From Escherichia coli (GTDB lineage Bacteria > Pseudomonadota > Gammaproteobacteria > Enterobacterales > Enterobacteriaceae), in NCBI RefSeq assembly GCF_003334765.1, contig NZ_QOWT01000002.1: a stretch of DNA of 64,000 bases; one strand, given 5' to 3'. The position numbers were made by a program, and so were the translations under genes. The first letter of the stretch is position 1. Every line of letters starts with the position of its first letter. Shown here piece after piece: positions 32,338-34,337 of this stretch. The notes under the pieces are model-generated. The model was given only the letters and a program-made list of their open reading frames with translations, had not been told where the DNA came from and searched no databases.

Positions 32338-34337
32338 ATTCACTACGTCCGGAATTATTAGAACTGACACCACAGGCACTGACGGCGTTAAGCAATGCCG
32401 GTTTTGTTAAGCGCAGCCTTAAGGAACTGGAAAATGGCAACGTCCCGGAAATCAGCCATGAGAACGGCGCTTTAATCGCCACCTTCAGTGACGGTGTCCG
32501 TACCCAGCTGGCGAACGGCCAGGCACTGAAAGAGGCTCAGTGCACCTGTGGGGCCAGCGGCATGTGCCGTCATCGCGTGATGCTGGTGTTAAGTTATCAA
32601 CGACTTTGTGCTACCGCCCAGCCTGCGGAAAAAGAAGAAGAGTGGGATCCGGCAATCTGGCTGGAAGAACTGGCTACCCTGCCCGATGCCACCCGCAAAC
32701 GCGCGCAGGCGCTGGTCGCTAAAGGCATCACCATTGAGTTGTTCTGTACGCCGGGCGAAATTCCCTCTGCCCGCTTACCGATGAGCGATGTGCGTTTTTA
32801 TTCCCGCAGCAGCATTCGTTTCGCCCGTTGTGATTGTATTGAAGGCACTCTTTGCGAACATATCGTACTGGCGGTACAGGCCTTCGTCGAGGCCAAAGCG
32901 CAGCAAGCAGAATTTAACCATTTAATCTGGCAGATGCGCAGCGAACACGTCACATCATCTGACGATCCGTTTGCCAGCGAAGAAGGCCAAACGTGTCGTC
33001 AATATGTTCAGCAATTAAGCCAGGCATTATGGCTTGGCGGCATCAGCCAGCCGCTTATTCACTACGAGGCCGCTTTCAGCCGCGCGCAGCAAGCGGCGGA
33101 ACGCTGCAACTGGCGATGGGTGAGTGAATCGCTACGGCAACTGCGCGCCAGCGTTGATGCCTTCCACGCCCGCGCAAGCCATTATCATGCCGGAGAATGC
33201 TTGTGTCAGCTTGCCGCATTAAACAGTCGATTAAATTGCGCACACGAAATGGCGCAGCGCGACAGTGTTGGTGAAATTCCTCCCATGCCGTGGCGCACGG
33301 TCGTTGGCGCAGGCATTGCCGGAGAAGCAAAGCTTGATCATCTGCGGCTGGTGTCTTTAGGTATGCGTTGCTGGCAGGATATTGAGCATTATGGTTTACG
33401 CATCTGGTTTACCGATCCCGACACCGGCAGTATTTTGCACCTTTCGCGCAGTTGGCCGCGAAGTGAACAGGAAAACTCACCGGCAGCTACGCGTCGGCTG
33501 TTTAGTTTTCAGGCTGGCGCACTGGCGGGCGGGCAAATTGTTTCACAAGCAGCAAAACGCAGTGCCGATGGCGAGCTGCTGTTAGCTACCCGCAACCGCT
33601 TAAGCAGCGTTGTGCCGCTGTCGCCTGATGCCTGGCAAATGTTGAGCGCGCCGTTACGCCAGCCGGGCATTGTGGCTTTGCGGGAATATTTACGCCAGCG
33701 TCCCCCCGCCTGCATACGGCCTCTTAATCAGGTCGATAACTTATTTATTCTGCCGGTCGCTGAGTGTATTTCGCTCGGTTGGGATAGCAGCCGCCAGACG
33801 CTGGATGCGCAGGTAATCAGCGGCGAAGGTGAAGATAATCTGCTGACGTTATCACTGCCAGCCTCAGCCAGCGCGCCTTATGCCGTTGAACGCATGGCGG
33901 CGCTTTTGCAACAAACAGACGACCCCGTGTATCTGGTTTCTGGCTTTGTCAGTTTTGTTGATGGGCAATTGACACTGGAACCACAGGTAATGATGACAAA
34001 GACTCGTGCCTGGGCGCTGGACGCAGAAACTGCGCCTGTGGTGGTATCACTACCTTCTACCAGCGTTCTGCCTGTGCCGTCTACTGCTCATCAGTTGCTG
34101 ATGCGCTGCCAGGCGTTACTTATTCAACTGCTCCATAACGGCTGGCGCTATCAGGAACAGAGCGCTATTAGTCAGGCAGAGTTGCTGGCGAATGACCTCA
34201 CCGCGGTGGGTTTTTATCGGCTGGCACATGTGTTGGCACAATTTCGTAATACAGAAAGCGAGGCACGGGTAGAAGCAATGAATAACGGTGTTTTGCTTTG
34301 CGAACAATTATTCCCCATGCTTCAGCAACAAGGATGA
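32334..34337 (+). CDS. yehQ: Protein with two SWIM-type zinc fingers
   Basis: ORF 32310..34337; ATG at 32334 overlaps the yehP TGA (ATGA coupling); CTCGASGMCRH and CDCIEGTLCEH CxCx5CxH motifs. Exact start uncertain. Confidence 0.82.
   Translation: MNSLRPELLELTPQALTALSNAGFVKRSLKELENGNVPEISHENGALIATFSDGVRTQLANGQALKEAQCTCGASGMCRHRVMLVLSYQRLCATAQPAEKEEEWDPAIWLEELATLPDATRKRAQALVAKGITIELFCTPGEIPSARLPMSDVRFYSRSSIRFARCDCIEGTLCEHIVLAVQAFVEAKAQQAEFNHLIWQMRSEHVTSSDDPFASEEGQTCRQYVQQLSQALWLGGISQPLIHYEAAFSRAQQAAERCNWRWVSESLRQLRASVDAFHARASHYHAGECLCQLAALNSRLNCAHEMAQRDSVGEIPPMPWRTVVGAGIAGEAKLDHLRLVSLGMRCWQDIEHYGLRIWFTDPDTGSILHLSRSWPRSEQENSPAATRRLFSFQAGALAGGQIVSQAAKRSADGELLLATRNRLSSVVPLSPDAWQMLSAPLRQPGIVALREYLRQRPPACIRPLNQVDNLFILPVAECISLGWDSSRQTLDAQVISGEGEDNLLTLSLPASASAPYAVERMAALLQQTDDPVYLVSGFVSFVDGQLTLEPQVMMTKTRAWALDAETAPVVVSLPSTSVLPVPSTAHQLLMRCQALLIQLLHNGWRYQEQSAISQAELLANDLTAVGFYRLAHVLAQFRNTESEARVEAMNNGVLLCEQLFPMLQQQG

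Follow-up and report, generated by a model that had tools for sequence, protein, structure and literature searches.

We have found that YehQ, the product of the last gene of a MoxR/VWA operon of Escherichia coli, carries two tandem modules of the SWIM type. We consider it probable that this SWIM-family protein, with a putative zinc-chelating pair, acts as an adaptor or recognition subunit, itself non-enzymatic, within a conserved machine of several proteins. The gene was analyzed in a stretch of 64,000 nucleotides (nt) from E. coli contig NZ_QOWT01000002.1 (assembly GCF_003334765.1), hereafter called the window, whose positions are used as coordinates throughout. The initial annotation of this stretch had placed two CxCx5CxH motifs in YehQ and had read them as SWIM zinc fingers of a targeting or recognition subunit. 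Both peptides were reproduced exactly by translation in the yehQ frame. The first one, CTCGASGMCRH (nt 32541-32573, residues 70-80), provides the candidate ligands C70-x-C72-x5-C78-x-H80, and the second one, CDCIEGTLCEH (nt 32829-32861, residues 166-176), provides C166-x-C168-x5-C174-x-H176.

When the YehQ sequence was shuffled 200,000 times, one CxCx5CxH motif was obtained in 61 shuffles and two in none; the pair is far beyond chance. When all six frames of the window were translated, a relaxed pattern, CxCx(3-25)CxH, matched three times, each time in YehQ. The third of these, CLCQLAALNSRLNCAH (CxCx10CxH, nt 33198-33245, residues 289-304), lies within a predicted helix. It varies even within E. 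coli, where the commonest allele has H291 and Q304, and it is missing from all distant YehQ relatives aligned. This candidate, which is not among the motifs of the initial annotation, was rejected as a third zinc site and is regarded as a chance match specific to the window allele. Since such a match can arise accidentally, the CxC/CxH pattern alone is little proof.

Both motifs satisfy the SWIM signature CxCxnCxH as quoted in PMC10236294, a paper which also quotes DNA binding and protein binding, both as predictions, for the role of these domains. Comparison with the Pfam SWIM profile (PF04434), the check proposed in the initial annotation, gave a mixed answer. SWIM was the sole Pfam family matching YehQ, once per motif, but the scores were weak: 18.7 bits (independent E value 1.3e-3) for the module around the first motif, SWIM-1, and 12.0 bits (independent E value 0.16) for the second one, SWIM-2. 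The low scores are probably explained by the spacer between CxC and CxH, which is only five residues long. Scanned singly, 71 of 101 family members matched PF04434 at E <= 0.1 and 6 of the 101 at E <= 0.001, and no other Pfam family recurred across them. Precomputed PF04434 matches are on record for many, though not all, YehQ orthologues.

The sequences show that one module is a duplicate of the other. Their local alignment scored 50, as compared with 23.7 ± 4.0 for shuffles, and hhalign comparison of residues 34-100 with residues 128-196 gave a probability of 88.6% (E 2.7e-6) over 50 columns, the strands before CxC included. An AlphaFold2 (AF2) model was built on a 101-sequence alignment, with a predicted local distance difference test (pLDDT) value of 94.4 and a predicted template modelling (pTM) score of 0.92. 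In this model both modules consist of three or four strands, then CxC, then a helix beginning at CxH, which is the arrangement expected of SWIM. DSSP assigned strands 39-59 and helix 79-93 to SWIM-1, and strands 133-166 and helix 175-190 to SWIM-2. The signature, the conservation of the ligands and the modelled layout agree on SWIM-type fingers, and the assignment appears sound at the level that sequence and model can give, with the zinc sites being predicted. The finding is not new. RefSeq names across E. coli are 'SWIM zinc finger family protein' or 'zinc finger protein YehQ', the K-12 MG1655 record (b2122) reads 'SWIM zinc finger domains-containing protein YehQ', with domains in the plural, and YehQ relatives are named 'SWIM-type domain-containing protein' in UniRef.

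To describe the family, 1.84 billion cluster representatives were searched exhaustively with phmmer, yielding 875 relatives with E <= 1e-3, of which 270 had E <= 1e-30. From 125 full-length representatives at 50% identity, which are 27-48% identical to YehQ, an alignment was made. The cysteines proved to be conserved in orthologues, as was required for the fingers proposed in the initial annotation. The SWIM-1 ligands (C70, C72, C78 and H80) were kept in 124 of the 124 representatives aligning there, and the SWIM-2 ligands (C166, C168, C174 and H176) were all kept in 112 of 126. In the other 14 (~11%), the SWIM-2 ligands were replaced together and the following helix (consensus vLAVWAFR) was retained. 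About 10 of these 14 representatives belong to one clade including Mycobacteroides, and 3 or 4 independent losses can be counted. All eight ligands were invariant in 16 enterobacterial sequences, and the C78-R79-H80-R81 stretch was near-invariant across the family, whose best conserved parts are the N-terminal helices and both SWIM modules. Judged from the alignment, the two fingers are not equivalent: SWIM-1 appears to be indispensable to the family, while the zinc site of SWIM-2 does not.

Retention of the SWIM-2 helix after ligand loss suggests that the fold survives without that zinc. This would suit modules that are merely structural zinc knuckles stabilizing the N-terminus of a scaffold, while specificity would come from another component, such as YehM or the DUF4132 proteins encoded in the same cluster. 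The same explanation could draw on the differences between E. coli alleles, since helix bundle A and the linkers, rather than the SWIM modules, hold most of the variable positions. However, SWIM-1 and its C-R-H-R helix start are invariant within the best conserved, N-terminal part of the protein, which exceeds the usual need of a fold-stabilizing site, and we regard purely structural knuckles as an improbable explanation.

The remainder of YehQ was modelled as two four-helix bundles flanking a beta-rich region. No enzyme-like domain was seen in the AF2 model, and YehQ appears on this basis to be without a catalytic domain. NCBIfam and PADLOC searches with YehQ gave no match, and a PDB sequence search with the single sequence or with the 101-sequence profile gave no meaningful one. 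At the level of structure, the top matches of residues ~325-562 were RPA70 DBD-A/B, Teb1, POT1, CST and LEF-3, these being matches of fold only. All are tandem OB folds that bind single-stranded DNA, which favours another possibility, namely that YehQ reads nucleic acid directly, such as single-stranded or damaged DNA, via its SWIM modules and OB-like barrels, the whole cassette being a MoxR/VWA machine linked to DNA damage or foreign DNA. R79 and R81, which stand near-invariant on either side of the predicted zinc-binding His of SWIM-1, may be cited in its favour as well. However, proteins and sugars are also ligands of OB folds, and YehQ lacks a basic character, with 4 Lys/Arg versus 12 Asp/Glu in barrel 2 and a barrel 1 that is about neutral. 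In MEKK1 and the ZSWIM proteins, moreover, SWIM domains work in protein-protein contacts.

Within E. coli, yehQ was found at a coverage of at least 80% in 5318 of 5426 complete genomes, with unusually divergent alleles. The window allele is identical to that of ATCC 8739; identity to it was at least 99% in only 131 genomes and 90-95% in 1837. Between the window and K-12, the non-synonymous rate (dN) of yehQ was the highest of the operon, and its ratio to the synonymous rate (dN/dS) was 0.22 for yehQ, 0.16 for yehM, 0.05 for yehL and 0.03 for yehP. The two YehQ proteins are identical over residues 325-502, and variable positions between E. coli alleles lie mostly outside the SWIM modules. The YehQ of K-12 MG1655 has 614 amino acids and ends at window residue 615, so that the last 52 residues (616-667, nt 34179-34337), most of the C-terminal helix bundle, are missing. 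In the same strain molR is split into yehF and the yehH pseudogene. Because of this truncation and of the broken molR, K-12 is probably a poor model. Other lineages are affected too: in strain EH09-18-41, molR and yehI have merged into a single hybrid, which is annotated as two pieces of pseudogene, in a Shigella sonnei lineage yehL and yehM are deleted, and deletions or insertions in the region have been reported for some lineages (PMC9334617). The cluster is intact in ATCC 8739-like strains.

These damaged loci, the silencing of the operon by H-NS and the clearly accidental third motif could suggest that the two motifs are due to chance, or that yehQ is a decayed cryptic gene with neither zinc site nor function in E. 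coli. Against this stand the shuffles, none of which gave two strict motifs, the ligands kept across phyla down to 27% identity, the presence of the gene in nearly all complete genomes, and a dN/dS of 0.22, which still denotes purifying selection. Chance or decay appears to be already contradicted by the conservation data, and we give it hardly any credence.

Table 1. Features of the yehQ region, in window coordinates. Structural elements of YehQ are predictions from the AF2 model.
Feature	Position	Strand	Description
yehQ CDS	32334..34337	+	667 amino acids; open reading frame (ORF) and RefSeq coding sequence (CDS) 'SWIM zinc finger family protein' at the equivalent position; start per RefSeq, end per ORF
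SWIM-1 module	32439..32612	+	residues 36-93: three beta strands, CxC (C70, C72), C78-x-H80 opening helix 79-93
SWIM-2 module	32721..32903	+	residues 130-190: strands, C166-x-C168, C174-x-H176 opening helix 175-190; duplicate of SWIM-1
Four-helix bundle A	32979..33266	+	residues 216-311; holds the non-conserved chance motif CLCQLAALNSRLNCAH (nt 33198-33245)
Beta-rich region	33306..34019	+	residues 325-562, modelled as two OB-like barrels
C-terminal four-helix bundle B	34083..34319	+	residues 584-662 (AF2 DSSP); mostly missing from the truncated K-12 allele
LexA-box-like CTG-N10-CAG	19684-19699		10 nt before the molR start codon; read directly from the sequence
molR-like gene	19709..23503	+	intact, 1264 amino acids; Pfam WGR E 5e-18, DUF4132 E 1e-49
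yehI	23513..27145	+	1210 amino acids; Pfam DUF4132 E 6e-46
yehK and AT-rich region upstream of yehL	27206..27523	+	105 amino acids, RefSeq annotation
yehL	27830..28918	+	MoxR-type AAA+ ATPase, AAA_5, YehL subfamily
yehM	28929..31208	+	DUF5682: N-terminal ChaN/TraB/EreA-like alpha/beta domain, then alpha-solenoid
yehP	31201..32337	+	VWA protein; MIDAS motif DQSGS at residue 222

The window is chromosomal DNA of E. coli, and an 8-kb stretch around yehQ is 100% identical to several complete genomes. The genes are annotated in the order metG, molR/yehI (WGR and DUF4132), yehK, yehL, yehM, yehP, yehQ, yehR, yehS and btsRS. As stated in the initial annotation, yehQ is the last gene of a MoxR/VWA operon: it adjoins yehP, which encodes the VWA protein, and lies downstream of yehL, encoding the MoxR AAA+ ATPase, and of yehM. 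The yehP stop codon and the yehQ start codon share the sequence ATGA, and there is an 8-nt overlap between yehM and yehP. The N-terminal domain of YehM has invariant His/Glu/Arg motifs, and on the strength of these and of the shared alpha/beta fold YehM can be placed in the EreA/ChaN/TraB/Tiki-like superfamily. By sequence, YehL comes closest among solved structures to Midasin AAA modules (E 3e-10), and PDB sequence searches with YehM, YehI and YehP gave no meaningful match. Among the seven MoxR subfamilies, the one typified by YehL is listed without a reported function (PMC3893208).

Related loci were examined in an Erwinia-like genome, Mycobacteroides chelonae, a deltaproteobacterium and four metagenomic contigs, among others. 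The order AAA_5, DUF5682, VWA_CoxE, YehQ-like was kept in all eight of these other loci, the YehP orthologues being VWA_CoxE/VWA_2 proteins. A DUF4132 gene, with or without WGR, precedes the cassette in seven of the eight, and the contig of the remaining one stops within the cassette. The Erwinia-like genome has its cassette at a different chromosomal site, and that of M. chelonae includes two DUF4132 genes. In one metagenomic contig (L010; JGI 3300044952, 1-10001), DUF5682 and VWA are fused into one protein of 1107 amino acids, the DUF4132 protein bears ankyrin repeats, and a gene combining NAD-dependent DNA-ligase domains with WGR lies directly upstream of the MoxR ATPase. Together with the yehM/yehP and yehP/yehQ overlaps, the DUF5682-VWA fusion of this contig favours the view that these proteins may form a complex.

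Fused or truncated gene calls, mostly singletons, are also present in public databases for E. coli yehP-yehQ, yehM-yehP and yehL-yehM; these are probably frameshift or assembly artefacts, not real fusions. In PHROGs, YehQ, YehM, YehP, YehI and YehK each gave a full-length match, with near-identical scores, to a family of unknown function, which suggests that host chromosomal E. coli genes were swept into the phage protein collection. As near-identical host genes in families of unknown function, these matches were rejected as a functional clue.

Regarding regulation, yehL and yehM have been reported to lose their repression in hns/stpA mutants, and H-NS to bind in the intergenic region (PMC3686432). 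The GC content of window positions 27200-27799 is 40%. A promoter-like site was noticed at 27601-27629 within the AT-rich yehK region upstream of yehL (27200-27830), and the AT-rich region with this site fits the published H-NS binding and derepression. At the head of the cluster, molR is among the LexA-regulated genes with a known SOS box (PMC6590174). The LexA-box-like sequence CTG-N10-CAG precedes it in the window, where the strict pattern CTGTN8ACAG found no match. DdrO/IrrE control and induction by mitomycin C have been described for one WGR protein and one DUF4132 protein of Deinococcus radiodurans (PMC8533742).

Combined with the ligase-WGR neighbour of contig L010 and the OB-like barrels, the SOS and DdrO links make up a coherent, if circumstantial, DNA-damage connection. 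They speak for direct reading of DNA by YehQ, as does the WGR domain on MolR. In contrast, yehLMPQ stands under its own H-NS-controlled upstream region and SOS control of yehQ has not been reported; furthermore, no PADLOC 2.0 defence model matched any of the six cluster proteins at E <= 0.01. On balance we view direct reading of nucleic acid by YehQ as possible but rather unlikely. Slightly more doubtful still is a wider proposal, in which molR-yehI-yehK-yehLMPQ would constitute a phylum-spanning DNA-damage machine: the WGR/DUF4132 proteins would sense lesions, the SWIM modules and OB-like barrels of YehQ would serve to read DNA or a partner bound to it, and the YehL/YehP motor would deliver or activate the TraB/Tiki-like hydrolase domain of YehM on a target. 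If true, this would make the cluster a MoxR system of a new functional type, acting in DNA repair or in genome defence.

The adaptor role thus remains our preferred reading of YehQ. It is founded on the apparent lack of a catalytic domain, the combination of SWIM modules with OB-like barrels, the constant position as last gene of the cassette, and the fastest evolution among the operon proteins; the highest dN is what would be expected of a specificity subunit. A targeting or recognition role, as suggested in the initial annotation, is plausible, and we infer for YehQ zinc binding, complex formation, an adaptor function and the nature of its ligand. In the machine that we envisage, YehL would supply ATP-driven remodelling and YehP, through its VWA/MIDAS domain, would couple the ATPase to its target. 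YehM would contribute its putative ChaN/TraB/EreA-like hydrolase domain, carried on an alpha-solenoid, and one or two DUF4132 proteins (MolR with WGR, and YehI) would accompany YehL, YehM, YehP and YehQ. Each SWIM module most likely chelates one Zn2+, the Cys-x-Cys being placed on a beta hairpin and the Cys-x-His where the next helix starts, and the pair of modules, above all the C-R-H-R helix start of SWIM-1, may form a rigid zinc-stabilized docking surface for a partner protein or nucleic acid.

Several points weigh against this role of YehQ. The SWIM profile scores are weak and the spacer is short. The repeated and complete loss of SWIM-2 ligands implies that the predicted zinc of this module is dispensable to whatever the family does. 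The raised yehQ dN/dS could reflect relaxed constraint and not diversifying selection, as the H-NS silencing, the C-terminal truncation in K-12 and the S. sonnei deletion would lead one to think; the rate fits a specificity subunit or relaxed constraint alike. Finally, no experiment or functional study on YehQ or its operon was found in the searchable literature.

The SWIM finding re-derives an existing annotation and is of no consequence by itself, but it is of use as an entry point. The YehL-type cassette is present in almost all E. coli and also reaches into distant phyla. The system is also tractable, with an invariant SWIM-1 in a non-catalytic subunit, a hydrolase-like fold in YehM, and a cluster head tied to the DNA-damage response.

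Among known systems, the vWA-MoxR-VMAP ternary conflict systems (Kaur et al. 2020, PMC7159879) resemble the cassette in having a MoxR ATPase, a vWA protein and a third large partner in a conserved operon. Unlike in these systems, no recognizable effector domain of that kind is present in the cassette, and no PADLOC match was found. SWIM, WGR, DUF4132 and YehL are not mentioned in that paper, and the YehL-type cassette was absent from the vWA-MoxR papers found. Known SWIM proteins, such as the bacterial SWI2/SNF2 ATPases, MuDR transposases and MEKK1, share with YehQ the CxCxnCxH signature and the predicted strands followed by a CxH-started helix. Unlike them, YehQ has two tandem duplicated copies with a short five-residue spacer, joined to helix bundles and OB-like barrels instead of a helicase, transposase or kinase, and some members of the family have a degenerate second copy. 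For the barrels, the tandem OB folds of RPA70, Teb1, POT1 and Stn1 are the best structural counterparts.

Midasin/Rea1, whose AAA modules were closest to YehL among solved structures, likewise combines AAA_5 with a substrate-gripping MIDAS/VWA domain, but it is one polypeptide of 5000 residues acting on pre-ribosomes, whereas the YehL-type parts are separate genes. In gene organization, a parallel exists with the MoxR AAA+/VWA pairs RavA-ViaA, NorQ-NorD, CbbQ-CbbO and CoxD-CoxE, in which an AAA_5 MoxR ATPase also stands beside a VWA protein with an intact MIDAS. By analogy with these pairs, a role in ATP-driven remodelling would be expected for YehL/YehP. In contrast to them, the YehL cassette always adds a DUF5682 protein (YehM), a SWIM protein (YehQ) and DUF4132, none of which is part of the characterized pairs.

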